Shown here piece by piece: positions 4,592 through 21,109 of a DNA stretch of 59,208 bases. The notes beneath the pieces are model-generated. The model was not told where the DNA came from. It worked only from the letters and a program-made list of their open reading frames with translations, and ran no database searches. The first letter of the stretch is position 1. Every line of letters begins with the position of its first letter. The DNA lies in the NCBI GenBank assembly GCA_033813475.1, contig JAPXRP010000001.1, positions 1-59,208 on the forward strand. Direction: 5' to 3'. The DNA comes from Candidatus Hydrogenedentota bacterium. GTDB taxonomy: Bacteria > Hydrogenedentota > Hydrogenedentia > Hydrogenedentales > CAITNO01. A program made the translations under genes and the position numbers.

Positions 4592-6619
4592 ATGAGAAAC
4601 GGATTTTTGTTCGTTGCGTGGGCTGCCACCGCGGCGGCTGTGGGATGCGGGGCGGCTTTCGCCGCGCCGGGCGCGCTTTCGCTGGACGGCGTCACCGTGG
4701 TGCCGCATCTGATGCTGGACACGATGCGCTACACCAAGGTGCCGGAGCCCGCCGACGGCGCGCGGGTGCAGCTCTTTCTGCGCAACGCCTCGAAGGGGGT
4801 GGTGACCGTGGACGCGGCGTCGCGTCTGCTGTTCGGCGGAAAGGCCCCGGCGGATCTGCTGGCCTCGGAGGACTGGGCGTGGCATGACACGCCCGCCGCG
4901 CAGCAGGTGGGGACGCTGGTCCTCGCGCCGGACACCATGACGGTGTGGACCTTCAACGGCCGCAAGAAGCCCTTTGGTCCCGGCGGAACCTGCACCATGG
5001 CCCTGGGTCCGGAGGACGCCCCCTGGCTGGCGCGGGATATTGAAATCGCCGCGCCGAAACAGTGGATTTCCGCGATCACCTTCCTCGGGCCGGAGGCCGA
5101 CGTCCGCCCCGACACGCTGGTGGTGCACGTTGCCAACGAAGCCGCCGCGCCGCTTGAACTGCGCGGGTGCCGCCTGTGGCTGCCCCTGGACCCGAAGAAC
5201 CCGCGCGTGCTGGCGGCGCAGCCGCCGCTGGCGGAGATCACGCCCTTCAACGGCCACAAGAGCATTCCCACCGGGGACCGTGGCGGGTTCATCGCCCAAA
5301 CAGGCCCGCTCCCCCTGACCTACGCGGTGGTGGAGGTGACCGTGGCCGCAGGCGGCGCCGAGTTTTCGCTCTGGGGCCACCTGCGGGTCCGCAAGGAGGT
5401 CTTCGATATCTCCGGCGGCTGGGTGGGAAGCGATGACGCCCTCAAAAGCGAGGCGTTCCACAAGGCGCTCAAACGGTTCTACGTGAACACGGCGCACATG
5501 GCCTCCGTGCCCGGCTACACGGACACCGAACTGTACGCGAAGTATCCGCTCAAGTACTTCAACTGCCTGGAGCCCGCGCAGTACGACACGGACGAGCTGC
5601 TGCCGCGCATTCACGGCGTGGAGTGCCTGGGCGAGCCGCAGTACGGCGGCGGGCGGCCCGTGCCGCCGCAGGAGGTGTGGGAAAAGCTCTACCCCTACGC
5701 CGCGACGCGCCTGGCCACGACCCTGACAAACAGCGAGGAGCGCATCTGGCGCGACTACGCGGGCCTGAGCGACTTCACGCACTACGACGCCTACCGCGTC
5801 ACCGCGCCGTCGGCGGACGCGTGGTGGAAGTATGACCGCTGGACGGGCGGAAAAATCTACTGGGGATCCCCGCTGGAGACCATCACCGACATGTGCATCT
5901 CCCTGCGCGAGATGACCCGGCCCATGCCCTGCGCGTACTGGTCGCAGGGGCCGCACGAGGGCTGGGGCGTCTACGGCGGCCGCAAGCGCACCTCGCCCAC
6001 CCCCGAGGAGCTGCGCCTCCAGGCGCACCACGCCCTGTCCACCCGCATCACCTCGCTGTACTGGTTCAACCTGAGCCTCAAGACGCTGGTGCAGTGGCGC
6101 GACACGCTGGACGAGCTGGGGCGCGTGGGCCGCGAGATGCGGATGATGGACGACTTCCTGCTGGAGGGCGACGCCTACCGGCACGAACGCGTCAAGAAGG
6201 CGGACGGAAAACTGGACTGGGACCTCAACTCCGTGGCCTGCCCGCGCGGGGCGCTGCTCTTCGCCCTGGACCTCGACTACGACGCCGACCGCAAGGCCCG
6301 CGTGTTCCAGTTCGGCGCGCCCCGGGCCGCCGTGTTCTCCTTCCCGCTGCCCGCGTATCTGGGCGCGCCCGCCGACGTGTTCCGCATGGACGCCGACGGC
6401 GTCCACGATGTCTCCTGGGCGGCAAAGGACGGCGGCGTGGAGATCACCGACACCCGGTCGCTGGTGGGCATTTATGTGGCCGCGCCGGACAAGGAACTCC
6501 GCGGCCGCATGGCGGCGGAACACCAGGCGCTGCTCGCGTATGAGACGGCCCTGAACTTCGACCCGGCCCGCAACGACGCCGACTTCGCCGAACTGGAAAA
6601 CTACCTCGGCGGGAAATAG
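4592..6619 (+). CDS. Exported hypothetical protein (675 aa), no recognisable family
   Basis: Long ORF with protein-like composition and a signal peptide 'MRNGFLFVAWAATAAAVGCGAAFA'. It lies on the same strand between the transporter and the sulfatase. The antisense 704-aa ORF is R/G/P-rich and is rejected. Confidence 0.7.
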   Translation: MRNGFLFVAWAATAAAVGCGAAFAAPGALSLDGVTVVPHLMLDTMRYTKVPEPADGARVQLFLRNASKGVVTVDAASRLLFGGKAPADLLASEDWAWHDTPAAQQVGTLVLAPDTMTVWTFNGRKKPFGPGGTCTMALGPEDAPWLARDIEIAAPKQWISAITFLGPEADVRPDTLVVHVANEAAAPLELRGCRLWLPLDPKNPRVLAAQPPLAEITPFNGHKSIPTGDRGGFIAQTGPLPLTYAVVEVTVAAGGAEFSLWGHLRVRKEVFDISGGWVGSDDALKSEAFHKALKRFYVNTAHMASVPGYTDTELYAKYPLKYFNCLEPAQYDTDELLPRIHGVECLGEPQYGGGRPVPPQEVWEKLYPYAATRLATTLTNSEERIWRDYAGLSDFTHYDAYRVTAPSADAWWKYDRWTGGKIYWGSPLETITDMCISLREMTRPMPCAYWSQGPHEGWGVYGGRKRTSPTPEELRLQAHHALSTRITSLYWFNLSLKTLVQWRDTLDELGRVGREMRMMDDFLLEGDAYRHERVKKADGKLDWDLNSVACPRGALLFALDLDYDADRKARVFQFGAPRAAVFSFPLPAYLGAPADVFRMDADGVHDVSWAAKDGGVEITDTRSLVGIYVAAPDKELRGRMAAEHQALLAYETALNFDPARNDADFAELENYLGGK

Positions 6620-6657
6620 AATGCCCTGAACGCGCGCCGCGCGGAAAGGAGCAAGCC

Positions 6658-8058
6658 ATGGGAAACGACGGCCTGACCCGCAGGGGATTCCTCGGCGCTT
6701 CGGCGGCGGGCGGACTGGCGGCCCTCGCCGCGGGCGGGGCGCGTTCTGCGGCCGGCGAGCCTTCGCCCCGCCCCAATGTCCTCTTCATCAACACGGACCA
6801 GCAGCGGGCCGACACGCTTGGCTGTTCCGGGAATCCGCTGGCGCGGACGCCGCATTTGGACGCGCTGGCCGCGCGCGGCGCGCTGTTCACGTCGTGCTAC
6901 GCGACCCAGCCCGTGTGCTCCCCCTGCCGGTCCAGCATGGTGACGGGGCTCTTTCCAAACGCCACCTCGGTGGTGGAGAACAACATCCCCCTGCCCGCGG
7001 CCCACTTCGCGTGGCCCCGCGCCCTGCGGGACGCGGGGTACCGCACCGCCTACATCGGCAAGTGGCATTTGGGCGTCGAGCCCGTGCCGGACTACTTCGA
7101 CCTGTGGCGGGGCTTCAACACCGGGTGGAAGCACTTCGTCAAGGAGGAGCCCTTCTACGCCGCGCCGGGAGAATCCGACAGCGCCTTCCGGGAGCGGCTG
7201 AAGAAGTCCCCGCCGTCCGTCCCGAAGGGGGAGCGCCTGGTCGGAAAATACCGCCCGGACGTGGAGGCGGACTACGCCCTGGCATTCGTCCGGGAAAACC
7301 GGGACCGGCGCTTCGCCTGCTGGCTGTCCTTCTACCCCCCGCACACGCCCAAGGAGGCCCCCAAAGAAAACATCGCCCTGTACCGGGACAGCGTCCGCCC
7401 GGTGGAGCAGGCGGTCTACCACGCCATGGTCAACCGCATTGACTGGAACGTGGGGCGGGTGCTGGCGGAGCTCGACGCCCTCGGCCTGCGCGAGCGCACG
7501 CTGGTGGTGTTCACCTCCGACCACGGCGAGAATTTCCCCCTCCGCTGGAACGACCACCACAAGCGCCTCTGCTACGACCAGGCGGCGAACGTGCCGCTGA
7601 TCGTCAGCCTGCCGGGCACGCTTCCGGAGGGAACGCGCGTCACCGACCCGGTCAGCGTCGCCGACCTCTGCCCCACCATCGCCGACCTTTGCGGGGTGAC
7701 GGCGCCAAAGGATCTGCACGGGGAGAGCCTGCGGCCCCTGCTGTCGGGCGCGCCGGACGGGGGACGCGGTGAGGCCTTCGTGCAGAACACCCCGTACACC
7801 CCCGGCAAGGGGCGGGACGCGGCCATGCGCGAGCGCTGCGTGGTCACCCGCGACTGGAAACTCATCCTGAACACCGAGCGCCCGCCGGAGCTGTACGACC
7901 GCCGCGCCGCCGCGCCGGACACGGAGAACCTCTTCGGGAAGCCGGAAACCCGCGACACCGCCCGCGCCCTCGCCGCGCGCATGGAGGCCTGGGCCGGCAG
8001 GACCGGCGACACCCTCGCCTCCGCGCTGGTGGAAAAGTGGGCCCCGCAATGGGCATGA
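6658..8058 (+). CDS. Cys-type sulfatase (arylsulfatase A family) with twin-arginine signal
   Basis: 'TRRGFLGASAAGGLAALAAG' is a Tat-like signal. 'NTDQQRAD' and the formylglycine motif 'CSPCRSSMVTG' are present. An RBS 'ggaaaggag' lies upstream. Confidence 0.9.
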   Translation: MGNDGLTRRGFLGASAAGGLAALAAGGARSAAGEPSPRPNVLFINTDQQRADTLGCSGNPLARTPHLDALAARGALFTSCYATQPVCSPCRSSMVTGLFPNATSVVENNIPLPAAHFAWPRALRDAGYRTAYIGKWHLGVEPVPDYFDLWRGFNTGWKHFVKEEPFYAAPGESDSAFRERLKKSPPSVPKGERLVGKYRPDVEADYALAFVRENRDRRFACWLSFYPPHTPKEAPKENIALYRDSVRPVEQAVYHAMVNRIDWNVGRVLAELDALGLRERTLVVFTSDHGENFPLRWNDHHKRLCYDQAANVPLIVSLPGTLPEGTRVTDPVSVADLCPTIADLCGVTAPKDLHGESLRPLLSGAPDGGRGEAFVQNTPYTPGKGRDAAMRERCVVTRDWKLILNTERPPELYDRRAAAPDTENLFGKPETRDTARALAARMEAWAGRTGDTLASALVEKWAPQWA

Positions 8059-10085
8059 CGCGCCTCCCGGCGCTCGCGACGCTGCTTCTGCTTTCGGGGG
8101 CGGCCTTCGCGTTTCCCCCGATGCTCGGGTACACCGAGCTGCGGACGGACCTGCCCGGGGGCCGGCATGGGAACGTGCGCACCATGCGGGCGTCTGTGGT
8201 GAACGCCGACGGCACGGACCGCAGGGAGGTGGGCGGGGAGCTGGCGGACGGACCGGATGTCTGGACCCAGTTCGCCGGGTGGTCGCCGGACGGCCGGCGG
8301 GCGGTGGTCTGCCGGGGCTGGCAGAATCCGGAGAACGCCCGCTGGGAGGAGGAGCACAAGACCTTCCGCATGGAGCCGGGGAAATGGTCCCTGGACTGCT
8401 GCCTCGTGGACCTGGAGACGGGCGCGGTGTTCAACGCCACCGCCGTGGACCGGGTCAGCCACTACAACGGCGGGCTGTTCTTCCTGTCCGACGGTCGCAT
8501 GGGTTTCACCGCCCTGGTGGACGGCGTTTCGAAACCCTTTGTCATGGACGCCGACGGGCGCAACAAGCGCGACGTGTCCGGCGAGGGCGGCGGCTTTGCC
8601 TACGGCTACAGCGCGTCCCCCGACGGGAAGCGCATCAGCTATCACGAGGACTACCAGATCCACATCGCCAACGCCGACGGCACGGACAAGCGGCGGGTGG
8701 AGACCGGCAACCCCTTCAACTTTGGGCCGCGCTGGTCGCCCGACGGGGAATGGATACTCTTTTCCAGCGGGGAACACGGGAAGAGCAACCCGCACGTCGT
8801 GCGGGGCGACGGGACCGGCCTGCGCAAACTGGCGGACCTCAACGGCTATCAGGGATGGATACTCTTCCTTGACGTTCCCGACTTCCACGAGGGCAGCAGC
8901 GACACGCCCGTGTGGTCCGCCGACGGCCGGTCGGTGTGGCACACGGCCCGGGTCGGGGAGAGCGTGGAGCTGTTTCGGACCACGCTGGAGGGGGCGGCGG
9001 AGCAGGTGACCACCCGCCCCGCGGGCACGCTGCACTACCATCCGACGCCCTCGCCGGACGGGCGGTGGCTGGCCTACGGCTCCCAGCGGGACGGGGTCCG
9101 GCAGGTGTTTGTGCGGAACCTGGCGGCGGGGAAGGAGACGCGCGTCACGGACCTGACAGCGGGCCACGCCGCGATGTGGCCGCACTGGCGCCCCGGAAGC
9201 GAGCCTGCGGCTGCTGAACCCCCGCAACGCGCCCCGACCCAGGCCGATGTTGCCTACGGCCCCCACGGACGGCAGGTGTTGGACTTCTACCAGGCCGCCT
9301 CGGAGGGACCCGCGCCCGTGGTGTTGCACATCCACGGCGGCGGCTGGGTCAACGGCGAAAAAAACAATGTGCCGGACCTGGAAGCCTATCTCGCGGCGGG
9401 CATTTCGGTGGTCTCCATCAACTACCGCTACACCTGGCAGGCCCAACTGGCGGGGGTGACACCGCCGGTCGCGTGGCCCCTGGAGGACGCCGCCCGCGCG
9501 CTGCAGTTTCTGCGGAGCCGGGCCGGCGAGTGGAACCTCGACAAACAGCGGATCGGCGCGACCGGCACCTCCGCCGGGGCGTGTTCCAGCCTGTACCTCG
9601 CCCTGCACGACGACCTCGCGGACCCAACCAGCGCGGACCCCGTGGCGCGGGAGTCCACCCGTCTCCGGTGCGCGGCGGTGGACCGCGCCCAGACCTCCCT
9701 CGACCCGGCGCAGCTCCGCGAATGGACGCCGAACAGCCGCTACGGCGGCCACGCCTTCGGGTTCATGGACCCCAGGGACCTCACCACCCGCGACACGCGC
9801 TTTGCCGAGTTTCTGTCGCGCCGCGAGGAGATCCTGCCGTGGATCCGGAGCTATTCGCCCTATGAGCTGGTCTCTTCCGACGATCCGCCGGTTTACCTGA
9901 GCTACCGCGAGGCCCCGGCGCTCGGGCAGGATCAGAAAGACCCCACCCACACGTCCAACTACGGCGCGAAATTCCAGGAACGCTGCCGCGAGGCCGGGGT
10001 GCCCTGCGAGTTCTTCTATCCCGGCGCGCCCGAGGCGCGGCACGCGTCCATTGCGGCGTTTCTGATAGAAACCCTGAAGAGCTGA
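8037..10085 (+). CDS. TolB-like (PD40/WD40-like) beta-propeller fused to an alpha/beta-hydrolase esterase domain
   Basis: Repeated 'WSPDG/ASPDG/PSPDG' blades are seen ([43 protein letters not shown]). The C-terminal half has the oxyanion 'HIHGGGW' and the nucleophile elbow 'GTSAG'. The start is GTG 8037, with ATG 8049 or 8055 as alternatives. It overlaps the sulfatase stop. Confidence 0.8.
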
Positions 10086-10162
10086 CCGGCGCCATCGGGT
10101 TCTTGAGGCGCGCCGGGTTCTTCGTCATAATGGCCCGGCATTCCGCGAACAAAGGAGGCGTC

Positions 10163-11617
10163 ATGAAGAGAAGGTCTTTTCTCCAGGCGGGCGGCGCGGG
10201 GGCGCTGTCCCTGCTGCTGGGCCGCGCGCCCGCGCGGGCGGCGCAGGACCGCCCGAACATCGTGTGGATCGTCGCCGAGGACATGTCCTGCCATTTCGGC
10301 TACCAGGGGGAGAAGGCCATCGCCACCCCGAACGTGGACCGGCTCGCGCGCGAGGGGACGGTCTTTGACACGGCCTACGTCACCTGCCCCGTGTGCTCGC
10401 CGTGCCGGTCGGCCATGATCACGGGCATGTACCAGACCACCATCGGCGCGCACAACCACCGGAGTTTCCGGGGCACCCTCAAGAATGACCTGACCCCGCC
10501 CGTTCGGCCCGTGCCGGAGCTGTTCCGGGAGGCCGGCTATCACGTCTGCAACGGCGCCAATCCATCGGCGGACGCGCTTGGAAAGACGGACTACAATTTC
10601 ACCTATTCCGGCGCCCTGTACGACGGGAAGGACTACGCGGGCCGCGCGCCGGGGCAGCCCTTCTTCATGCAGTTCCAGCTCCACGGCGGCAAGAAGCGGA
10701 ACGCGAAAGTGGCCAACCCCGTGTCGCCGGACGCGGTCACGCTGCCGCCGTACTACCCCGACGACCCGGTGATGCGGCAGGACTGGGCGGAGTATTTGAA
10801 CTCCGTGCTGGATGTGGACCGGGAGGTGGGCGAGATCATGGCGCGCCTGCGCGCCGAGGGCCTGGCGGAGAACACGGTGGTCTTCTTCCTCACGGACCAC
10901 GGCATCAGCCACGCCCGGGGCAAACAGTTTCTCTACGAGGAGGGAACGCGGGTCCCGTTCATCGTGTGGGCACCCGGCCGCGTGCCCGCCGGAGAGGTCC
11001 GGAAGGACTTCATCGCGCACATAGACATGGCGGCCACGTCCCTCCACTTCGCGGGCATCCCCGTTCCGGACTGCATGGAGGGACGGCCGCTCTTCGGGCC
11101 GGAGGCCCGCCCGCGCGACTTTGTGGTGTCCGCCCGCGACCGCTGCGACGAGACGGTCGAGCGCCTCCGCAGCGTGCGGAAGGGAACCTTCACCTACATC
11201 CGCAACTTTTATCCGGAACGCCCGCACCTCCAGCCGAACGCCTACAAGGACAAAAAGCCCATTCTGGTCCGCCTGCGCGAGCTGCACGCGGAGGGGAAAC
11301 TGGCGGGACACCCGGCGGAGGGGATGTTCGCCGCGCCGCGTCCGAAGGAGGAGCTCTACGACCGCGCGACGGACCCGTGGGAGCTGAACAACCTCGCGGA
11401 CGACCCGGCCCACGCGGCAACGCTGGCGGAACTGCGCGGGATTCTGGACCAATGGATACGGGAAACCGGTGACAAGGGGCAAACCCCGGAGACCGAAGCG
11501 GCCTACGACGCGGACATGGCGGTCTACCTCGCAAGCCAGAAGCGGAACCCGGACTATGTCCGCATCCTGGAGAAGAACATCGCCCAAATGAAGGCCTGGG
11601 CCGCTGAGGGGAAATGA
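10163..11617 (+). CDS. Cys-type sulfatase with twin-arginine signal
   Basis: ORF 10103..11617 is trimmed to ATG 10163, preceded by 'aaaggagg'. '[20 protein letters not shown]' is Tat-like. The motif '[11 protein letters not shown]' is present, along with 'TDHG'. Confidence 0.9.
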
Positions 11618-11622
11618 CAGAG

Positions 11623-11740
11623 GGAACCACCGATGAACGGTGATGAACACCGATGAGGAAAATGGGACAAAGCAAAGAAGAGCAGGGTGCGATTCGTCCA
11701 TGCATCTTCTCTTCTTTCATCAGTGTTCATCGGTGGTTCC
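11623..11740. repeat. Composite intergenic palindrome (GATGAAC-type arms)
   Basis: 'ggaaccaccgatgaac' (11623-11638) is the exact reverse complement of 'gttcatcggtggttcc' (11725-11740). Inner arms carry degenerate 'gatgaac' / 'gttcatc' units. Confidence 0.8.
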
Positions 11741-11787
11741 AAAACTCTTCAAGGACGCGGGCAACCACGGCAGGGCATGAAGAAACC

Positions 11788-13470
11788 ATGAGAGCACACA
11801 TGCATACGATCTTGGGGAGTCTCTGCGCCGGACTGTTCCTTGCCGCTTCGGCGCTGGGCGCCGAGGGGCATTGGCCCCTTGTGGACGACGCCCGTGACCA
11901 TTCCGGGAACGAGGTGCCCACGGTGAACCACGGGGTGGTCTTTGATGTTCCGGCGCCGGACGGCAGCCGCGCCGCGCGGTTTGACGGGGAGTCCGCCTTT
12001 CTGGAGGTGCCGGGGGACCGAGCGCCGGCCTTCGGCGCGGGGGATTTCACCGTGTCCGTGGAGGTCTTTTTGGAGGAGCCGCTGGACGACGCGCCGGGGG
12101 ACATTCTGGGGTGTTTCGACCCCGACACCCGGCGCGGGGTGAACTTCGGCATCGCCTCGCATTCGGGCGTGGCGAACTCCCAGCCAAACCACCGCAATGT
12201 GTATTTCGGCGTGGACAACGGCCAGCTGGAGCCGGAATGGACCGACTGCGGGCGGCCGGGGCAGGCCGTGTTTGTCTTCGGCTTCGCGGTGCATGACGGG
12301 GCGCTGTACGCGGCGACCTGCGAGGCCCACGAGGGCGGGGCCGGGCACGTGTACCGGTACGTGGGCGGCGACCGCTGGGAGGACTGCGGCAGCCCCGACG
12401 GCAGCAACGCCGTCGCCGCGTTGGCCGTGCACGACGGCGCGCTCTACGCGGGCACGTCGCGGTACGACACCACCGGGTCCGCCATGGCGGCGTCGCCGAA
12501 CACCACGCCGGGCGGCAAGGTCTACCGGTACGATGGCGGCACGGCGTGGACCTTCTGCGGCGCGCTGTCCAACCCGGAAACGGGGGAGGCGGCCACGCTG
12601 GGCGGGCTGGCGGTGTTCCGGGGCGCGCTCCACGCGACCACGCTGAAGCAGGAGGGCTTCGGACTCTACCGGTACGCCGGCGGCGAAACCTGGGCCTACT
12701 GCGGAAACCCGGGGCGGCGCGTGCTGAACCCCTGCGTGTTCAACGGCGCGCTGCACATGGTGTCCTACGACGCCCCCGGCGGCCCCTTCCGCTACGACGG
12801 CAAGGGGTTCTCCTACATCGGCGGGACGATCACCCCGCCCATCCAGCAGGACTACAGCTTCGCCGTGTACGGCGGCGAGTTGCACCTGTCCACCTGGCCG
12901 GAGGCCCATGTCTACCGCCTGGACCGGAGCGGTGTCTGGCGCCTGCGCGGCCGGCCCGGGGACGAGCTGGAGACGATGGGGATGCTGGCGTACAACGGGA
13001 AACTCTACACGGGCACCCTGCCCTCCGCCCGCGTCTACCGCCTCGACGGCGCGGACCGATGGACGCCTGTGGGCCAGGTGCTCGACGCCTCGGACAACAA
13101 GTACCGCCGCGCGTGGTCCATGGCCCTCTTTCAGGGGCGGCTCTTCTGCGGCACCCTGCCCTCGGGCCGGGTCTTCAGCCTGGAGGCCGGACGCTGCGTG
13201 ACCGACGACCGCGCCCTCCCCACGGGATGGCGGCGCCTCGACGCCGTGCGCCGGGGTGGACGCCTGTTCCTCTATGTGGACGGGAAACAGGTGGCAGAAA
13301 GCGCGCCCTTTGAGCCCGCCGACTACAATCTTCACATCGGCGATCCCCATGGCGACGGTCTCCCCCTCCGCATCGGCTTGGGCGCGGCGGACTACTTCCA
13401 CGGCTGGATGCGGAATCTCCGCCTGTCCCCCCGCGCGCTGTCCCCCGAAGAGCTGGGCGCCGCGAAATGA
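11788..13470 (+). CDS. Exported LamG/concanavalin-like lectin-fold protein interrupted by a 7-repeat beta-propeller-like insert
   Basis: ORF 11653..13470 is trimmed to ATG 11788, giving the signal 'MRAHMHTILGSLCAGLFLAASALG'. The N-terminal part is LamG-like ('RFDGESAFLEVP...DFTVSVEVFL'). The C-terminal part is also LamG-like ('WRRLDAVRRGGRLFLYVDGKQV...FHGWMRNLRLSPRALS'). Seven 'xGALYAxT...VYRYxGG' repeats lie between them. Confidence 0.75.
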   Translation: MRAHMHTILGSLCAGLFLAASALGAEGHWPLVDDARDHSGNEVPTVNHGVVFDVPAPDGSRAARFDGESAFLEVPGDRAPAFGAGDFTVSVEVFLEEPLDDAPGDILGCFDPDTRRGVNFGIASHSGVANSQPNHRNVYFGVDNGQLEPEWTDCGRPGQAVFVFGFAVHDGALYAATCEAHEGGAGHVYRYVGGDRWEDCGSPDGSNAVAALAVHDGALYAGTSRYDTTGSAMAASPNTTPGGKVYRYDGGTAWTFCGALSNPETGEAATLGGLAVFRGALHATTLKQEGFGLYRYAGGETWAYCGNPGRRVLNPCVFNGALHMVSYDAPGGPFRYDGKGFSYIGGTITPPIQQDYSFAVYGGELHLSTWPEAHVYRLDRSGVWRLRGRPGDELETMGMLAYNGKLYTGTLPSARVYRLDGADRWTPVGQVLDASDNKYRRAWSMALFQGRLFCGTLPSGRVFSLEAGRCVTDDRALPTGWRRLDAVRRGGRLFLYVDGKQVAESAPFEPADYNLHIGDPHGDGLPLRIGLGAADYFHGWMRNLRLSPRALSPEELGAAK

Positions 13471-13991
13471 ATGACCAGGCCGCGAGAACGGTCTACGCCG
13501 AGCCGGGGAACCGCGTTGGCGCGAAACTGGCCGACATGGCGGCCTACACCGGCCTGCGCGCCCTGATCCATGCCGCGCTGGTCTACGGGGCGGGCCTCGC
13601 CGTCGAGGACCCGAAATTCATGCCCCTGCTGCTCGCGGGCGGGTGGGCGGCCCACCACGCCTACGACACCGTCTTCACCGCATGGCTCGGCGGAACCCCC
13701 GGCAAGCTGCTCCTGGGCATGCGCGTGACACGTCCCGACGGCGCGCCCGTCGGCTGGCGCCGCGCCCTGTGCCGCAGCCTCGCAGAATGGCTCAGCCGCC
13801 TGACCCTCGGCCTCGGCTACGCCGCAGCCTTCATGAACCCCGAACGCCGCACCCTGCACGACGTCCTGTGCGACACTGTGGTCGTGGATGTGTCCCGGGG
13901 ACGTTCCGTCCGCCCGGAGGACGCCCCCGCGAGGGAGGGTGTGCCGGAAGACGCCGTTTCCGCAGACGTCACGTCATGCGCGGGCGAATGA
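13467..13991 (+). CDS. RDD-family membrane protein
   Basis: Its ATG overlaps the upstream stop (ATGA at 13467-13470). It has hydrophobic segments and a C-terminal 'RRTLHDVLCDTVVV' typical of RDD domains. Confidence 0.65.
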   Translation: MNDQAARTVYAEPGNRVGAKLADMAAYTGLRALIHAALVYGAGLAVEDPKFMPLLLAGGWAAHHAYDTVFTAWLGGTPGKLLLGMRVTRPDGAPVGWRRALCRSLAEWLSRLTLGLGYAAAFMNPERRTLHDVLCDTVVVDVSRGRSVRPEDAPAREGVPEDAVSADVTSCAGE

Positions 13992-14211
13992 TGATTCGCC
14001 CCTACGGGTGGGGCCGCGGCGCAACGCACCGGACCAACGCCATTCTTACATGCGGGGGCGAATGATGATTCGCCCCTACGGGTGGGGCCGCAGCGTCGTG
14101 CATCGGACCGACGCCGTTCTGTCATGCGGGGGCGGTACGGCATGACATGCAAGGCATTCCCCCACGCGGCAGGGATCCAATCCGTCCTGTAGGGGCGGAT
14201 CATCATCCGCC
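13975..14211. repeat. REP-like element cluster: two direct copies of about 72 bp plus one inverted partial copy
   Basis: 'catgcggg(g)gcgaatgatgattcgcccctacgggtggggccgc' occurs at about 13975 and about 14048. Each copy holds the hairpin gggcgaat/attcgccc. The inverted relative 'gtaggggcggatcatcatccgccc' lies at 14188-14211. Confidence 0.8.
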
Positions 14212-14342
14212 CTCTTCCCGCCTCGTACAACACCCCGCCCCGGTATCCCGCACCCCGGGGTTGACGCGGAGCCGGGGCGCTGGCTATAGTGGCGGCGAGG
14301 CGCGGGGCCGGGGATCAGGCGGCCGCGCGAAAGGGAGACCGC

Positions 14343-16661
14343 ATGCGACTCACGGACGCCGAAAAACAGGAAATCCTCCGGTTTATTGAGGCCGGCAAGC
14401 CCCTGCCCGACAAGTACCGCTTCCTCCTCTTCGACGACAAGCGCGAGGTTGAGCTGGTCTGGAACGGAAAGACCGGCGAGGTCTGCAACATCGTCCTCCC
14501 CTTCCAGATCATCGAGCAGGTGGACGAGCCCCGCGCCGAAAAGACCGAGGACGCGCCCCTGCAGGGGATGCTCTTTGACGAGCGGGGACGGCAGCTCAAA
14601 GGCTGGACCAACAAGCTCATCTGGGGCGACAACAAGCTCATCCTCTCCTCCCTCAAGAACGGCCCCCTCCGCGACGAAATCGAGCAGCAGGGCGGCCTCA
14701 AGCTCATCTACATTGACCCGCCCTTCGACGTCGGCGCCGACTTCTCCATGGACATCGAAATCGGCGACGACACCTTTACCAAGAAGCCCAACATCCTGGA
14801 GGAAATCGCCTACCGCGACACCTGGGGCAAAGGGGCAGACTCGTTCATTGCCATGATCTATGAGCGTCTGGTGCTGATGCGGGATCTGTTGGCGGAGGAT
14901 GGGAGTATCTATGTGCATTGCGATTGGAGGGTGAACTCATTCGTTCGCAATTGCCTTGACGAAGTGTTCGGTAAGGACCGGTTAATCAACGAGATAGTCT
15001 GGAAGCGCGCCCACACAGTAAAAGGTAACATCGGACAGGGTAGCAAGCACCTTGGCGCAAATACAGACACAATTTTTCTTTATGCTAGGACTCCGAACTA
15101 TACATTTAATCAGCAGTACATTCCTTATTCTGAAGCCTACGTTGCGCAGTTCTTTCGGTACACGGAGAAAAGTGGGCGACGCTATCGCCTAATCAGCATG
15201 ATTGGCCCCGGAGGCGCGGCGAAAGGGAATCCCACTTATAGCGTTATGGGTGTCACGCGTTCATGGCGATACAGCGAAGCTAAAATGAGGGAGTTAATCG
15301 AAACAGGAATGGTCGTGCAAACGAATCCCGGAACGGTTCCACAGAGAAAACAGTATTTGGATGATGGGGATGGCGTATCCGTGCAATCGCTTTGGGACGA
15401 CATAACAGGCATTGCAGCTTCTTCCTCGGAGCGCGCGAATTACCCCACACAGAAGCCCGAAGCGCTCCTTGAACGCATATTGAAAACATCTTCCAACGAA
15501 GGCGAGCTGGTCGCGGATTTCTTCTGCGGTTCCGGCACAACGGCGGCGGTGGCGGAGAAGCTGGGCCGGAAGTGGATCGCTACGGACCTGGGGAAATTCG
15601 CGATTCACACGACGCGGAAGCGGATGATCGGGGTGCAGCGGGGGCTGAAGGCGTCGGGGAAGGGGTACCGGGCCTTTGAGATTCTGAATCTGGGGAAATA
15701 CGAGCGGCAGCATTATGTGGGGGTGAACCCGAACCTGCGGGAGGAGGAGCAGCGGAAGCAGGCGGAGGCGAAGGAGTCGGCGTTTCTGGACCTGATCCTG
15801 CGGGCGTACCGGGCGGAGCGGGTGGACGGCTTTGCCTGTTTCCACGGGAAGCGGGCGGGGCGGATGGTGTCGGTGGGGCCGGTGAACCTGCCGGTGACGC
15901 GGCTGTTTGTGGAGGAGGTGATTCTGGAGTGCCGCCGGAAGCGGGTCACGAAGGTGGACATCCTGGGTTTTGAGTTCGAGATGGGGCTGTTCCCCAACGT
16001 GCTGGACGAGGCGCGGGGCAAGGGGATAGACATCGCGCCGAAGTACATTCCGGCGGAGGTGTTTGACCGGCGGGCGGTGGAGAAGAACCAGGTGGTCTTC
16101 CACGACGTGTCCTTCATCGAGGTGCGGCCCCATGTGCGCGAGGGGGGCAGGGGAAAGGCCCCGGCGGTGGCGGCGGAGCTGACGGACTTCTCGGTGTTCT
16201 ACTCGCAGGACTCGGTGGCGGCGGCGGAGGCGGCGCTGAAAAACAAGGGCAGCCGGATCGTGGTGGAGAAGGGGCAGATTGTCAAGGTGAGCAGGGACGC
16301 CCGCGGGGTCGTGACGCGGGAGACCCTGACCAAGACCTGGACGGACTGGATAGACTACTGGGCGGTGGACTTCAACTTTGAAAGCAGGCGCGAGCTTATC
16401 CGCGTGGCGCGGCCCATCGCGGCGGGCCAGGGGGCGCTTCCGGGGGCGGAACCCCAGGCGGAGCTGGCGGAGTACGAGGAGGTGTGGACGGGGGACTATG
16501 TGTTTGAGAACGAGTGGCAGAGCTTCCGGACGAAGAAGGACCGGTCGCTGGAGCTGAAAAGCGTCTTCCATGAGTGCGCCCCGGGCCGCCGGAAGATCGC
16601 GGTGAAGGTGGTGGACATCTTCGGCAACGACACGATGACCATCGTGGAGGTGAACGTGTGA
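14343..16661 (+). CDS. mod: Type III R-M-like N6-adenine DNA methyltransferase (Mod), beta-class motif order
   Basis: ORF 14289..16661 is trimmed to ATG 14343. Motif IV 'IYIDPPFDVGADF' lies at 14715-14726. Motif I 'FFCGSGTTAAVAEKLGRKWIATD' lies at 15519 onward. The N-terminus 'KYRFLLFDDKREVELVWNGKTGEV' is typical of type III-like Mod proteins. Confidence 0.9.
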   Translation: MRLTDAEKQEILRFIEAGKPLPDKYRFLLFDDKREVELVWNGKTGEVCNIVLPFQIIEQVDEPRAEKTEDAPLQGMLFDERGRQLKGWTNKLIWGDNKLILSSLKNGPLRDEIEQQGGLKLIYIDPPFDVGADFSMDIEIGDDTFTKKPNILEEIAYRDTWGKGADSFIAMIYERLVLMRDLLAEDGSIYVHCDWRVNSFVRNCLDEVFGKDRLINEIVWKRAHTVKGNIGQGSKHLGANTDTIFLYARTPNYTFNQQYIPYSEAYVAQFFRYTEKSGRRYRLISMIGPGGAAKGNPTYSVMGVTRSWRYSEAKMRELIETGMVVQTNPGTVPQRKQYLDDGDGVSVQSLWDDITGIAASSSERANYPTQKPEALLERILKTSSNEGELVADFFCGSGTTAAVAEKLGRKWIATDLGKFAIHTTRKRMIGVQRGLKASGKGYRAFEILNLGKYERQHYVGVNPNLREEEQRKQAEAKESAFLDLILRAYRAERVDGFACFHGKRAGRMVSVGPVNLPVTRLFVEEVILECRRKRVTKVDILGFEFEMGLFPNVLDEARGKGIDIAPKYIPAEVFDRRAVEKNQVVFHDVSFIEVRPHVREGGRGKAPAVAAELTDFSVFYSQDSVAAAEAALKNKGSRIVVEKGQIVKVSRDARGVVTRETLTKTWTDWIDYWAVDFNFESRRELIRVARPIAAGQGALPGAEPQAELAEYEEVWTGDYVFENEWQSFRTKKDRSLELKSVFHECAPGRRKIAVKVVDIFGNDTMTIVEVNV

Positions 16662-16702
16662 ACAGACCGGACGGCCGACAGACGGGACCGCCCGTCCCGG
16701 CA

Positions 16703-17590
16703 ATGCCCACCTACCTCCGGCAGCGCCTGGTGCTGTTCCTGCTGGAGGCCGCGGGGGGGCGTCTGGGAAAGATGGACCTGCAGAAGCTGCTGTTCCTGCA
16801 CGGCGAGGAGCGGGAGACGCGGGACTACGCCTTCGTGCCCTACCAGTTCGGCTGCTACTCCTTCCAGGCCGCCGCCGACGTGGAGCTACTGGAGGCGTCC
16901 GGCTGGCTGGAGACCGAGGGAAACACCGTGCGCCTCCGCGCCGCGCCGGGCGCCGCGCCCTGGGCCGCCCGGAGCTGGGACCGGCAGGAGGTGCGGGACT
17001 GGCTGGCGGGCCAGCCCCTGCGGGGGGACGGGCTGGTGCGGGAAATCTACACCCGGTACCCCTATTACGCGATTCGCAGCAAAATGAAGGAGCGCGTGCT
17101 TGATCCCGAAACCCTGCGCCGGGTGGAGGATCTGGCCCGGAAGCTAAACCGCCCGGGGACGGTCCTGTTCACCCTGGGGTATGAGGGCATCGCCTTCGAG
17201 GCCTTCGCCAACAAGCTGATTAGGAACGGGGTGCGGCTCCTGTGCGACGTGCGGGCCAACCCGCTGAGCCGGAAGTTCGGCTTCTCCAAGAGGAGCCTGG
17301 AGACCCTTCTTCCCAAGCTGGGCATCCAGTATGCGCATGTTCCGGAACTCGGCATTGCCTCCGAAAACCGGCGGGATCTGGAAACGGAGGAGGACCGCGC
17401 CCGCCTTTTCGTTCAGTATGCGGAGTCGCTCACGGACCGGGAGGAGGGGCTTCGACGGGTGGAGGGGCTGCTGCGCGAGTGGAAACGCGTCGCCCTGGCG
17501 TGCTTCGAGGCGGACCCGGCGCGGTGCCACCGGCACTGCGTTTCCGACGCCCTGGCCGAACGCGGCGGCTACCGGGTGAAACATCTATGA
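16703..17590 (+). CDS. Two-domain protein: N-terminal Panacea/SocA-like or wHTH-like domain plus C-terminal DUF488
   Basis: The C-terminal half 'TLGYEGIAFEAFANKL...LLCDVRANPLSRKFGFSK...LGIQYAHVPELG...ACFEADPARCHRHCV' matches the DUF488 pattern as I remember it. The start is ATG 16703. GTG 16658 is an alternative and would overlap the mod stop (GTGA). Confidence 0.75.
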   Translation: MPTYLRQRLVLFLLEAAGGRLGKMDLQKLLFLHGEERETRDYAFVPYQFGCYSFQAAADVELLEASGWLETEGNTVRLRAAPGAAPWAARSWDRQEVRDWLAGQPLRGDGLVREIYTRYPYYAIRSKMKERVLDPETLRRVEDLARKLNRPGTVLFTLGYEGIAFEAFANKLIRNGVRLLCDVRANPLSRKFGFSKRSLETLLPKLGIQYAHVPELGIASENRRDLETEEDRARLFVQYAESLTDREEGLRRVEGLLREWKRVALACFEADPARCHRHCVSDALAERGGYRVKHL

Positions 17591-18420
17591 GGGAAAGGGT
17601 TCTCATCACCGTCAAGACCTACCCCGTGCTTTCGCGGAAGTACGCGGAGCTGGTCTGCACGGCGGGGGTGACGGAGGCGGGGGAATGGCGGCGGCTTTAC
17701 CCCATCCAGTTCAGGCTGCTCCAGGACGGGCAGAAGTACCATAAGTACCAGTGGGTGGAGGCGGACATTGAGAAGTCCGACACGGACGACCGCCCGGAGT
17801 CCTTTAAGATCGTCGGCGACTCCCTGAGGACGCTCGGGACGCCTCTTCCGGCGGCTCGCCATTGGGCGGACCGGAAACGCGCCTTTTCGGACAAGGTGGA
17901 GTGCCATGAACGCCTGGACCCCCTGTTCGAGCGGGCGCACCGGAACGAGTTGTCCCTGGCGCTGTTCAAGCCCGCGCGCATCCTTCGGTTTGAACCCGAG
18001 GAGACAGAACGGGAGTGGGACCGCGACCGGCTTGACAAGCTGGAGGCGGAAAAACGGCAGCTCCAGCTTTTTGACGACGAGGAGTCCGTGGCCCGCCAGT
18101 TTGAGGTGGTGAGGAAACTCCCCTACAAGTTCTATTGCCGCTTTGAGGACGCGAGCGGCAAATCCAGCCGCCTGATGATCGAGGACTGGGAGATTGGCGT
18201 TTTGTTCTTCAAGTGCCTCGACGAGGCGGGGGGCGATGAAAAGGCCGCCCTCGAGAAGGTCCGGCAGAAGTACTGGACGATGTTTGTCGAAAGCGGACGG
18301 CATGAAATGTGGCTGATTTTGGGAACCGTGCTTGAGCACCACCGCAAGCGCGCCCCAAACCCCTTCGTGATCGTGGGGATTTTCAATCCGCTTCACAACC
18401 CCCAGGGAGAACTGTTCTGA
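17587..18420 (+). CDS. Hypothetical protein (277 aa), no family recognised
   Basis: Its ATG overlaps the upstream stop (ATGA at 17587-17590), and it ends 1 nt before the res ATG. Composition is protein-like ('MRERVLITVKTYPVLSRKYAELVCTAGV...'). I trimmed it from ORF 17242..18420. Confidence 0.7.
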   Translation: MRERVLITVKTYPVLSRKYAELVCTAGVTEAGEWRRLYPIQFRLLQDGQKYHKYQWVEADIEKSDTDDRPESFKIVGDSLRTLGTPLPAARHWADRKRAFSDKVECHERLDPLFERAHRNELSLALFKPARILRFEPEETEREWDRDRLDKLEAEKRQLQLFDDEESVARQFEVVRKLPYKFYCRFEDASGKSSRLMIEDWEIGVLFFKCLDEAGGDEKAALEKVRQKYWTMFVESGRHEMWLILGTVLEHHRKRAPNPFVIVGIFNPLHNPQGELF

Positions 18421-18421
18421 C

Positions 18422-21109
18422 ATGGCGCTTCATCCCGAATTCCCCTCCTCGCCGCACGCGGTGCTGCGGCCGGAAATCCGCTGGTTCCCCGCCGACGAGA
18501 CCCTGCGCGAGACGGGCATGGAAAAGCTCATGCCGCCGCTGGTGCCCATGCTGCGCCGGAAGGTGCGCGATTTCCGGGAGAGCGGATACGCCGGGGCGTC
18601 CGACACAAGCCGCAGCCTGCTTGTCTGGTGGTTTGAGACGCCGCACCTGGTGCCCGGCCCGCAGGGCGCCGACACGGAGTTTGCGTTCTATTTCGCCCAG
18701 CGGGAGGCGCTGGAGACCATTGTCTACCTGCACGATGTTGTCGGCGTCCGGGACAAGCACGACCTGATGCGGTTTGACACGGTGGGCAACGTGTCGGGGG
18801 GGATGTTCGATGAGACCTGGCCCCGTCTGGTGGTCAAGATGGCCACGGGAAGCGGAAAGACAAAGGTGCTCGCCCTGGCCCTGGCGTGGAGCTACTACCA
18901 CCGGCTGTATGAGGCGGACTCCGACCTGTCCCGCAACTTCCTGGTCATCACGCCGAACATCATCGTGCTGGACCGGATTTACAAGGACTTTCAGGGGCTG
19001 CGCATATTCTTCTCAGACCCCGTGATTCCGGACAACGGGGTGGACGGACGAAACTGGCGGGACGATTTCCAGCTCACCCTGCACGTGCAGGACGAGGTGC
19101 GCGTGACACGCCCCACGGGGAACATCTTCCTCACCAACATCCACCGCGTGTATTCGGGGGACGACATCCCCCCGTCCCCCGGGGACGAGGACACGATGGA
19201 CTACTTCCTGGGCCGGCGGCCCACGGGGGGGACCACGGACTCCAAGGTGGACCTGGGGATGATCGTCCGCGACATTGACGAGCTGATGATCCTGAACGAC
19301 GAGGCGCACCACATCCACGACCCCCGCATGGCGTGGTTTAAGTCCATTGAGGACATCCACAACCGCCTCCTGCAGAAGGGGGGCGCCCTTTCGCTGCAAG
19401 TGGACACGACGGCCACGCCCCGGCACAACAACGGGGCCATCTTCGTGCAGACGGTCTGCGACTACCCCCTGGTGGAGGCCATTTCCCAGAACGTTGTCAA
19501 GCATCCGGTGCTTCCGGACGCGGCGAGCCGCGCGAAGCTCCAGGAGTCCCAAAGCGCGAAGTACACGGAGAAATACGCCGACTACATCCACCTGGGGGTG
19601 GTCGAGTGGCGCAAGGCGCACGCCGAGCACGCCAAAATGGGGAAGAAGGCCGTCCTCTTCGTGATGACCGACGACACGCGCAACTGTGACGAGGTGGCGG
19701 AGCATCTGCGGCGCACGTACTCCGAGTTTGAGGACGAGGAATCGGTTCTGGTCATCCACACCAAGAAGAACGGGGACATCTCCGAGTCCGCCTCGGGAAA
19801 GGACAAGGAGGAGCTGGAACGGCTGCGAAAACAGGCCAACGAGATAGACCGCACCGACAGCCCCTACAAGGCCATCGTCTCGGTGCTCATGCTTAAGGAG
19901 GGGTGGGATGTCCGGAACGTCACCACCATCGTCGGGCTGCGCGCCTACGCCGCGCAAAGCAACATCCTGCCGGAGCAGACACTGGGCCGCGGGCTCCGGA
20001 AGATGTATGCGGGCGAAGTGGAGGAGTATGTGAGCGTTGTGGGGACCAACGCCTTCATGGAGTTCGTGGAGTCCATTCAGGCGGAGGGGGTGGTGCTGGA
20101 GCGCCGGGCGATGGGCGAGGGCACGACCGGCGCCGCGCCGCTTGTCATCGAGGTGGACCGCGACAACCCCAAGAAGGACATCGCCGCCCTGGACATCGAG
20201 ATTCCCGTGCTCGCCCCGCGTGTGTACCGGGAGTACGGGAGTCTTTCCGAACTGGACATCTCGCTGGCCCCCGGTGCCAGGGTGCCCGTTCGCGAGTTCA
20301 CCAAGGAGGAGCAGCGGCTCATCGTTTTCCGGGACATCACCACGGGAGAGGAAACGCACCGCACGGTTCTCGAACCCGCCGGGGTTGCGGATTATCGGAG
20401 CGTGATCGCGTATTTCACGCGCGCACTGATGAAGGACCTGCGCCTTTTCAGCGGCTACGACGTGCTGTATGGCAAGGTGAAGGTGTTTGTGCAATCCGGC
20501 CTGTTTGACCGTCCGGTGGACTTGGAGGCTGCGAACACCCTGCGCAACCTGGCCGAACCGGCCGCCGCCAAGACACTCTTCGACACGGTCAAGCAGGCAA
20601 TCAACGCGCTCACCGTCCGGGACATGGGGGGGGCGGAGATACGGGAAACCATCCGCCTGAGCGAAATGAGGCCGTTTGTCGCAAAGAATCAGGGATACCT
20701 TCTCCCGCGACGAAGCATTTTTAACAAAATCATCGGGGACGGCGATCTGGAGCTTCGCTTTGCCGCCTTTCTGGACGATTGCGGGGACATTGTGTCCTTC
20801 GCCAAGAACTACCTCGCCGTCCGCTTCAAGCTGGACTATGTGAAGGCCAACGGGGACATTTCCAACTACTACCCGGACTTCTTCGTCAAGCTTCCCGATG
20901 GCAGGCTGGTGGTGGTGGAAACCAAGGGCCGCGTGGATTTGGACGTTCCCCTCAAGATGGAACGGCTGCGGCAATGGTGCGACGATGTGAATGCGGCCAC
21001 GCCCGCGCATTCCTGCGATTTTATCTACGTGGACGAGGAGAGCTTCTACGCATACAAGCCAACGTCGTTTGGACAGGTCCTGTCCGCGTTTCGCGAGTAC
21101 AAGGGCTGA
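18422..21109 (+). CDS. res: Type III restriction enzyme Res-like SF2 helicase with C-terminal PD-(D/E)xK-like nuclease
   Basis: Walker A 'KMATGSGKTKV' and motif II 'ILNDEAHHI' are present. The helicase C-terminal block includes 'LKEGWDVRNV'. A C-terminal nuclease-like 'NYYPDFFVKLPDGRLVVVETKG' follows. Confidence 0.9.
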   Translation: MALHPEFPSSPHAVLRPEIRWFPADETLRETGMEKLMPPLVPMLRRKVRDFRESGYAGASDTSRSLLVWWFETPHLVPGPQGADTEFAFYFAQREALETIVYLHDVVGVRDKHDLMRFDTVGNVSGGMFDETWPRLVVKMATGSGKTKVLALALAWSYYHRLYEADSDLSRNFLVITPNIIVLDRIYKDFQGLRIFFSDPVIPDNGVDGRNWRDDFQLTLHVQDEVRVTRPTGNIFLTNIHRVYSGDDIPPSPGDEDTMDYFLGRRPTGGTTDSKVDLGMIVRDIDELMILNDEAHHIHDPRMAWFKSIEDIHNRLLQKGGALSLQVDTTATPRHNNGAIFVQTVCDYPLVEAISQNVVKHPVLPDAASRAKLQESQSAKYTEKYADYIHLGVVEWRKAHAEHAKMGKKAVLFVMTDDTRNCDEVAEHLRRTYSEFEDEESVLVIHTKKNGDISESASGKDKEELERLRKQANEIDRTDSPYKAIVSVLMLKEGWDVRNVTTIVGLRAYAAQSNILPEQTLGRGLRKMYAGEVEEYVSVVGTNAFMEFVESIQAEGVVLERRAMGEGTTGAAPLVIEVDRDNPKKDIAALDIEIPVLAPRVYREYGSLSELDISLAPGARVPVREFTKEEQRLIVFRDITTGEETHRTVLEPAGVADYRSVIAYFTRALMKDLRLFSGYDVLYGKVKVFVQSGLFDRPVDLEAANTLRNLAEPAAAKTLFDTVKQAINALTVRDMGGAEIRETIRLSEMRPFVAKNQGYLLPRRSIFNKIIGDGDLELRFAAFLDDCGDIVSFAKNYLAVRFKLDYVKANGDISNYYPDFFVKLPDGRLVVVETKGRVDLDVPLKMERLRQWCDDVNAATPAHSCDFIYVDEESFYAYKPTSFGQVLSAFREYKG

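Follow-up and report, generated by a model that had tools for sequence, protein, structure and literature searches.

A DUF488 protein with a probable DarG- and Panacea-related domain and its predicted OB-fold partner as optional cargo of a Type III-like restriction-modification locus

Introduction

What are two additional genes doing between the methyltransferase gene and the restriction gene of a bacterial restriction-modification (R-M) operon? The question is raised by a contig of a Candidatus Hydrogenedentota bacterium (GenBank assembly GCA_033813475.1, contig JAPXRP010000001.1), of which positions 1 to 59,208 of the forward strand, the whole stretch of 59,208 nucleotides that was analysed, are referred to here as the window. 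The first of the two genes, gene A (16658..17590, forward strand), encodes a protein of 310 amino acids, and the second, gene B (17587..18420, forward strand), encodes one of 277 amino acids. A sequence-only reading of the window had regarded the product of gene A as a DUF488 domain fused to an N-terminal domain resembling the Panacea (DUF4065, SocA-type) antitoxins, and had taken its coupling to a methyltransferase gene as a pointer to a DNA- or nucleotide-directed role for DUF488.

Judged by profile matches along both proteins, the A-B pair is not new, being already catalogued in PADLOC-DB v2 as the phage defence candidate (PDC) PDC-M19. What is new here is the dissection of its domains, the link of protein A to both the C-terminal domain (CTD) of DarG and the Panacea domain, the OB-fold of the partner protein, and the recognition that the pair is one of several optional inserts at a hot spot between R-M genes. 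Tentatively, and with somewhat less than even confidence, A-B is read as a self-contained accessory defence module, resembling a toxin-antitoxin (TA) system and acting on nucleic acid, that is carried as exchangeable cargo between mod and res.

The two domains of protein A

The C-terminal half of A (residues ~169-310; 17162..17587, forward strand) is a DUF488 domain, as the sequence-only reading had proposed from peptides that are all present in the translation of gene A. The Pfam profile DUF488 (PF04343) matches residues 181-299 (6.6e-27; 95 bits, with the cut-off at 22.2) over profile positions 3-121 of 121, and A also scores 28.4 bits, just over the cut-off of 27, with Pfam DUF488-N3a, which is described as the “active DUF488-N3 subclade”. 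The polar motifs of the domain, GYEG, CDVRxNPxSRKxGF, YxH, CxE, and CHRH, do not vary among 46 homologues, the invariant residues being C196, D197, and R199; S204, R205, and K206; Y225 and H227; C282 and E284; and C290, H291, and R292.

The AlphaFold2 (AF2) model of A is a confident one (pLDDT 92, pTM 0.87). Foldseek searches, for which whole-protein models were the queries throughout, returned viral DUF488 proteins (E 1.6e-3 to 3.7e-3), protein tyrosine and dual-specificity phosphatases, and tetrapyrrole-methylase-like folds; the TM scores are low because the query was the full-length, two-domain model. DUF488 is said to have been placed in the rhodanese-phosphatase superfamily by Burroughs and Aravind in 2023, who reportedly also defined a clade of RapZ-C, DUF488, and DUF4326 members, probably including DUF488-N3. 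The phosphatase-type matches of the predicted structure would agree with that placement. A separate observation is that the DUF488 domain of A also matches the profiles PDC-M45B (2.8e-16) and PDC-M45C (9.6e-12) in PADLOC, which belong to a second candidate system, so that DUF488 recurs among embedded defence candidates.

The N-terminal half of A (residues ~16-168; 16703..17161, forward strand) has no match in Pfam even at E<=10, and a Pfam scan of this half alone, from either possible start codon, gave only a chance-level match to NIR_SIR_ferr; neither A nor B has a match in NCBIfam. Judged by its sequence conservation, the half is a real domain: R21 and Q22; K43, L44, and L45; F59 and P61; G65, S68, and F69; W83; R122; and Y131, P135, Y137, and A138 are invariant in the 46 homologues. 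Its AF2 layout comprises a central helix carrying ‘DLQKLLFL’, a small sheet with ‘FGCYSF’, a beta-hairpin, and a helical extension, and its net charge is basic, with a median of +5. A profile search across 1.84 billion representative sequences yielded 1795 relatives of this domain, and DUF488 is present in 98 of the best 150.

Where, then, does this domain belong? The top match of the A model in the Protein Data Bank (PDB) is chain 7yk3_D, from a complex of DarT and DarG (E 6e-3, probability 1.0, TMt 0.50). When two profiles built from A were run against 177,635 PDB sequences, the sole match of the one (A1) was 7yk3_B (E 0.37), and the sole credible match of the other (A6) was again 7yk3_B, annotated as ‘DNA ADP-ribosyl glycohydrolase’ (E 0.066). 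The alignment sets positions 22-69 of the query against positions 30-77 of 7yk3_B, pairing ‘DLQKLLFL...RYGCYS’ with ‘LEIQKLMYF...RYGPYS’. In ten DarG proteins taken from plasmid genes, the 7yk3_B-like match starts near residue 190 of ~350, past the macrodomain; the matched chain represents the part of DarG at its C-terminus that binds DarT. An hhalign comparison of the A N-terminal domain with the ten DarG-CTDs gave a probability of 86% (P 5e-6, 45 columns; control 0.4%). The 48-residue fragment of 7yk3_B itself had no match in Pfam, and as a query it recovered one 76-aa fragment alone from a large protein database.

The relationship to Panacea is more distant. Among 150 unselected relatives of the N-terminal domain, four match Pfam SocA_Panacea at E<=1e-3, where ~6e-6 would be expected for any one family. 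In ten divergent relatives the SocA_Panacea match is collinear and sub-threshold, with 15-24 bits against the required 25.7; the ten had been preselected with a hidden Markov model of DUF4065, and the figure of ten in ten is not independent. A diverse profile of 127 sequences, compared by hhalign with eight phage DUF4065 proteins, gave a probability of 57% (P 1.1e-4; 99 collinear columns), with the control at 0.5%; it replaces the result of a shallow alignment of 18 sequences, which gave 7% and covered the LQKLL helix only. These comparisons had no secondary-structure term, and the DUF4065 and DarG alignments were small (eight and ten sequences, respectively). A profile of the eight DUF4065 sequences run against the PDB gave chance matches only and did not recover DarG, and no DUF4065 or Panacea protein stands among the top 50 Foldseek matches of A in BFVD, a ranking dominated by the DUF488 domain of the whole-protein query.

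The Panacea likeness put forward in the sequence-only reading thus survives in part. The collinear sub-threshold matches, the four matching relatives, and the 57% alignment speak for it, while the Pfam threshold is missed, the position of the Panacea GPV signature reads G65-C66-Y67 (the glycine invariant and the cysteine present in at least 90% of the 46 homologues), and the DarG-CTD, which reads GPY at this position, lies closer. The N-terminal domain of A is probably a remote relative of both DarG-CTD and Panacea, closest to DarG-CTD and outside Pfam Panacea. The two reference families themselves share a core, an LQKL[LM]Y helix followed by a YGP[YV] hairpin, and with it an hhalign probability of 78% (P 1.8e-5; control 0.4%), which suggests that they are related and that DarG may carry a Panacea-type domain. 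A statement of such a link was not found in the literature searched.

The partner protein B

The product of gene B has no match in Pfam, and its profile found nothing credible among the PDB sequences. Its AF2 model (pLDDT 84, pTM 0.84) is a tandem OB-fold of the kind seen in RPA, CST, and HIN-200 proteins: Foldseek matched it to RPA (8oej_A, 2.3e-6), CST (6.5e-5), the HIN domains of p204 and p202 (6e-4 to 7.5e-4), and Teb1 (9.5e-4), and further to the HIN domain of IFI16, POT1, TEBP, and bacterial single-stranded DNA-binding proteins. The homologues of B possess many invariant tryptophan, tyrosine, arginine, and lysine residues, and both proteins are basic, with isoelectric points of ~9.2 (A) and ~8.6 (B). 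Because of the modelled tandem OB-fold, the invariant aromatic and basic residues, and the basic isoelectric point, B is predicted to bind nucleic acid, most likely single-stranded DNA (ssDNA). Conservation is higher in B than in A, the mean column identity being 66% and 58%, respectively.

Pairing, distribution, and prior cataloguing

Scoring 8000 candidates from a protein search gave at least 1474 full-length relatives of A, and a search with B gave at least 4829; in the best 120 listed for each, the relatives of A are ~300 aa and those of B ~277 aa in length. Relatives of A are encoded by 481 GTDB species genomes of many phyla. Given this number of full-length homologues and of species genomes, the two-domain architecture predicted for A is not a product of chance.

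Genome loci were taken as the best 80 from pattern-based scans, with open reading frames in the foreign loci called by a simple longest-frame rule, and the fractions derived from them are rough. In roughly 65 of the 80 loci, from many phyla, B directly follows A, often with a 4-nt overlap. An intact B is missing beside A in ~10 of the 80, and the exceptions are mostly contig ends or decayed copies in which B is truncated or split (loci L013/L172, L040, and L066). Twenty IMG/VR contigs, proviral ones included, carry A, and the two genes are adjacent in 14 of them. The cultured-phage and plasmid collections contained matches to the DUF488 domain only and no full-length A.

The sequence-only reading had treated the locus without knowledge of the catalogue, in which both proteins have near full-length counterparts: A matches PADLOC PDC-M19A (1.5e-91) with residues 19-309 on profile positions 2-293 of 294, and B matches PDC-M19B (2e-94) with residues 2-277 on positions 3-269 of 269. 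The two also belong to PHROG 14939 (A, 2.8e-47) and PHROG 25907 (B, 2.3e-53), both without an assigned function, and the source annotations of their relatives go no further than ‘DUF488 family protein’ for A and ‘hypothetical protein’ for B. The architecture of A may also have been described already by Burroughs and Aravind in 2023. The PDCs are phage defence candidates derived in silico by ‘guilt-by-embedding’, from genes nested in BREX, DISARM, and Type I R-M systems (Payne et al., bioRxiv 10.1101/2024.01.29.577857). The pair in the window is like PDC-M19 in that A and B match both models end to end, are adjacent, and are embedded in an R-M locus; it differs in its host, which is Type III-like R-M.

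Association with restriction-modification genes

In the window the pair stands between the genes for a DNA methyltransferase (Mod) and a restriction helicase-nuclease (Res), and the same Mod-A-B-Res frame recurs in ~20 of the 80 genome loci, whose Mod and Res share 56-78% identity with those of the window. Is the pair then a fixed component of that R-M system? To approach this from the other side, metagenomes were searched with Res, independently of A, and 60 loci with enough upstream sequence were obtained (from loci L089-L168). A-B lies between Mod and Res in only four of these 60. In ~20 of them, Mod is directly beside Res with a gap of 12-30 nt and no insert, and the remainder hold other genes: KilA-N (PDC-S22) in 11 loci, Bro-N (PDC-S13) in nine, pairs of MNT and HepT (PDC-S09) in four, PDDEXK_3 in three, and also a PIN gene, a GHKL ATPase gene, or a block containing HerA. 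As four of the 60 loci carry A-B, ~20 are empty, and the rest are filled by other inserts, this Type III-like R-M family has a hot spot for exchangeable cargo at its Mod-Res junction, and A-B is one such insert. The notion of A-B as an obligate R-M subunit was rejected on the same count.

The pair is also found in loci without this Mod and Res. In 42 such loci, 17-19 of 66 upstream neighbours on the same strand are DNA methylases (Eco57I in ten cases, N6_Mtase in seven, and MmeI in two), alongside TaqI_C, ResIII, helicase, and PLD domains; the downstream neighbours are mostly housekeeping genes, and some pairs stand alone in housekeeping surroundings. The association with R-M genes on which the sequence-only reading depended is supported by the Mod-Res frame in ~20 of 80 loci and by the methylases elsewhere, and it is strong without being dependent on one R-M type. 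The coupling to the methyltransferase, from which that reading argued for a DNA-directed role of DUF488, is not a functional dependence, the pair being optional in its own R-M family and found beside other R-M types or alone; the OB-fold partner and the DarG-like domain are better grounds for such a role.

One larger assembly was observed in Coraliomargarita algicola (CP138858.1, locus L169), where positions 6520-14843 encode, on one strand, an MmeI-type R-M enzyme, a HEPN protein, A, B, a DEAD helicase, and a T5orf172 protein. The block may be a larger composite defence island around A-B.

Proposed function and alternative readings

The favoured reading starts from what the analysis shows, namely the domain identities, the pairing of the two genes, their optional embedding, the OB-fold of B, and the distant kinship of the N-terminal domain, and from these we infer a complex of A and B, its trigger, its chemistry, its toxicity, and any anti-phage effect. 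The union in A of a DarG-CTD/Panacea-type domain with an enzyme, next to a predicted ssDNA binder, suggests a TA-like module that acts on nucleic acid and would most likely serve as a second line of defence against phages. In such a module, A would be a DUF488 enzyme with intact polar motifs joined to an antitoxin-type N-terminal domain for partner binding, and B, as a tandem OB-fold protein, would bind ssDNA. A contact between A and B (or within A) through the N-terminal domain would keep the system inert until infection released it, whether through phage ssDNA or DNA ends or through a lost A:B balance; B would then bind to ssDNA, and the target of the DUF488 domain would be a nucleic-acid terminus or a nucleotide-derived adduct. 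On this view, protein A would serve as the regulated effector, with B as the subunit that senses ssDNA or provides targeting, a division of labour that is favoured because the motifs of the enzyme do not vary and OB-folds usually have a targeting or sensing role.

Several points weigh against this reading. The N-terminal domain of A stays below the gathering score of Pfam SocA_Panacea (PF13274; 25.7 bits) and lacks the GPV signature, and its alignment with DarG spans just 45 columns. A global mimicry of ssDNA in the style of DarG is disfavoured for this domain, which is basic (+5). About half of the A-B loci have no adjoining defence gene. The literature searched does not mention PDC-M19 and gives no experiment, domain dissection, or mechanism for it, nor does it report an activity for DUF488; E. 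coli YeaO, a DUF488 member, is recorded as having ‘no literature’ (bioRxiv 10.1101/2024.05.24.595836). Lastly, the toxic partner, if there is one, may be A or B.

The polarity of the pair is precisely where its serious rival departs from the favoured reading. By analogy with DarTG, B would be the toxin, either as an ssDNA-binding OB-fold protein that blocks replication or through an activity not recognised in its sequence, and A would be an antitoxin with two functions, its N-terminal domain blocking B and its DUF488 domain enzymatically reversing the damage. We hold this to be improbable on balance, if well worth serious consideration. The toxin-binding domain of DarG is the nearest known relative of the N-terminal domain of A, and DarG likewise pairs toxin binding with a domain for enzymatic reversal (PMC12170906, PMC11481870); A precedes B with a 4-nt overlap, an antitoxin-like gene order; B is the better conserved of the two proteins; and the Panacea protein SocA neutralises a toxin that blocks replication (PMC8832971). 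On the other hand, B has no recognisable catalytic domain and no ADP-ribosyltransferase fold among its Foldseek matches, so that a modification which DUF488 could reverse is not apparent, and in ~10 of the 80 loci A has no intact B beside it.

Roles in the service of the host locus rank lower. Were A-B a helper of restriction with no activity of its own, it would process the DNA ends or ssDNA tails left after cleavage, for instance through the removal or transfer of terminal phosphates, and so block the re-ligation or repair of phage DNA; part of the DUF488 clade is reportedly predicted to process DNA ends (Burroughs and Aravind, 2023), the predicted fold of DUF488 is phosphatase-like by Foldseek, the pair in the window is translationally coupled to Mod and Res, and it adjoins R-M systems of several types elsewhere (Type III-like, type IIG of the Eco57I/MmeI kind, and type I). 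Such a role appears unlikely in view of the four in 60 close Mod-Res loci that possess the pair, the unrelated genes of TA or abortive infection type that fill the same slot, the pairs that stand alone in housekeeping contexts, and the antitoxin-type domain, which would not be expected in a simple helper enzyme. Least likely of all, and distinctly improbable, is the view of A-B as a decaying passenger or as a selfish module for addiction or stability, a TA-like pair that stabilises a mobile R-M island and plays no part in defence. The lower G+C content of the R-M island (0.60-0.64, under flanks of 0.68-0.71), the presence of A-B in IMG/VR proviral contigs, and the degraded copies mentioned above would suit it; the strong conservation of full-length A and B across many phyla argues against it, as does the nature of the other genes in the Mod-Res slot, which are defence candidates or TA modules often tied to defence.

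Comparison with known systems

DarG counteracts DarT in two ways, its macrodomain removing ADP-ribose and its C-terminal domain filling the ssDNA site of DarT (PMC11481870, PMC12170906). The N-terminal domain of A and the DarG-CTD appear to share a core, an [LI]QKL[LM][YF] helix followed by an [YF]G[PC][YV] hairpin, and A and DarG each fuse such a domain to an enzyme domain, with B, the neighbour of A, being ssDNA-binding by prediction. The differences are equally plain, as A has no macrodomain match in Pfam and instead carries DUF488 at its C-terminus, so that the domain order is reversed, and its partner is modelled as an OB-fold protein and not as a DarT/DUF4433 ADP-ribosyltransferase, in a gene order that is also reversed; an annotated DarT/DUF4433 gene stands beside nine of the ten plasmid DarG genes. 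Both systems can sit in R-M loci. On the Meiothermus taiwanensis plasmid pMtWR-220 (locus L180, positions 1-2735), a DarT-DarG pair was observed directly after a gene annotated as ‘restriction endonuclease subunit S’, the specificity subunit of type I systems, and is followed by a gene for an AAA ATPase.

Panacea antitoxins act by direct binding to their toxins, and SocA, a member of this group, neutralises a toxin that arrests replication (PMC8832971). The modelled topology of the A N-terminal domain fits the arrangement published for Panacea, in which a central helix and a small three-strand sheet are surrounded by further helices (PMC8832971), with an LQKLLY-type helix at the matching position and a G-x-x motif on the sheet, and A resembles PanA in being paired with an adjacent, unrelated partner gene. 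It departs from Panacea in lacking a Pfam match, in reading G-C-Y for GPV, and in being fused to an enzyme, a fusion not described by Kurata et al. (PMC8832971). With other modules nested in R-M loci, such as PrrC in Type I R-M, MNT-HepT, and PDC-S13/S22, A-B shares the position of variable cargo between R-M subunit genes, whereas the proteins themselves are unrelated to A and B.

Wider meaning

DUF488 is a large and widely distributed family, and in the pair a DUF488 enzyme that appears to be active has a defined context of two proteins, in which the fusion to a domain probably related to those that bind toxins and the predicted ssDNA-binding partner turn a vague association into concrete experiments. 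A bolder proposal, which we consider rather unlikely to hold as a whole, is that a single superfamily of toxin-binding adaptors unites the DarG-CTD, Panacea/DUF4065, and the N-terminal domain of PDC-M19A, and that PDC-M19 is a DarTG-like defence system built from different parts. In such a rebuild, DUF488, de-modifying nucleic acid or processing its ends, would replace the macrodomain, and a tandem OB-fold ssDNA binder would replace DarT. If true, the pair would be the first means of approaching what the widespread DUF488 family, which includes YeaO of E. coli, does biochemically. The Mod-Res junction, for its part, is useful for finding more defence candidates.

Layout of the locus

The four genes Mod, A, B, and Res follow one another in this order on one strand and are tightly packed. 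Mod (14289..16661, forward strand, 790 aa) is a Type III-like N6/N4 DNA methyltransferase that matches Pfam N6_N4_Mtase (1e-39) and PADLOC MTase_III (7.2e-112), and its relatives, at 63-77% identity, occur in at least 54 metagenome loci. Res (18422..21109, forward strand, 895 aa) is a Type III-like restriction helicase-nuclease that matches Pfam ResIII (3.5e-12) and PADLOC REase_III (4.4e-18), with a weak Pfam match to a TnsA-like endonuclease at residues 789-847; it also matches the NCBIfam family BPTD_3080 (5.7e-66), at 223 bits under the equivalog cut-off of 800. By these family matches, Mod and Res in one operon constitute a Type III-like R-M pair.

The open reading frame of gene A extends over 16574/16658-17590 (forward strand) in the translation of the window, and residue numbering here starts from the GTG at 16658. 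This GTG overlaps the stop codon of Mod by 4 nt (GTGA) and has a GGAGG 5 nt upstream; the other possible start is an ATG at 16703. The ATG of gene B overlaps the stop codon of gene A by 4 nt (ATGA), and Res starts 1 nt past the stop codon of gene B. The sequence-only reading had placed gene A in an R-M operon with translational coupling, and this is upheld by the overlap with the Mod stop codon and by the R-M families to which Mod and Res belong. The G+C dip mentioned above runs across the four-gene block.

Just upstream of Mod, at window positions 13975-14212, lie three copies of an element of ~74 nt: a tandem pair in direct orientation (13975-14048 and 14049-14122), with 85% identity between the two, and a partial copy in inverted orientation (14186-14212). 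The hairpin GGGGCGAAT-GATG-ATTCGCCCC is present in every copy. The window holds no further copies, and none would be expected by chance. The element could be of the repetitive extragenic palindromic or miniature inverted-repeat transposable element type, or a boundary repeat of the R-M island.

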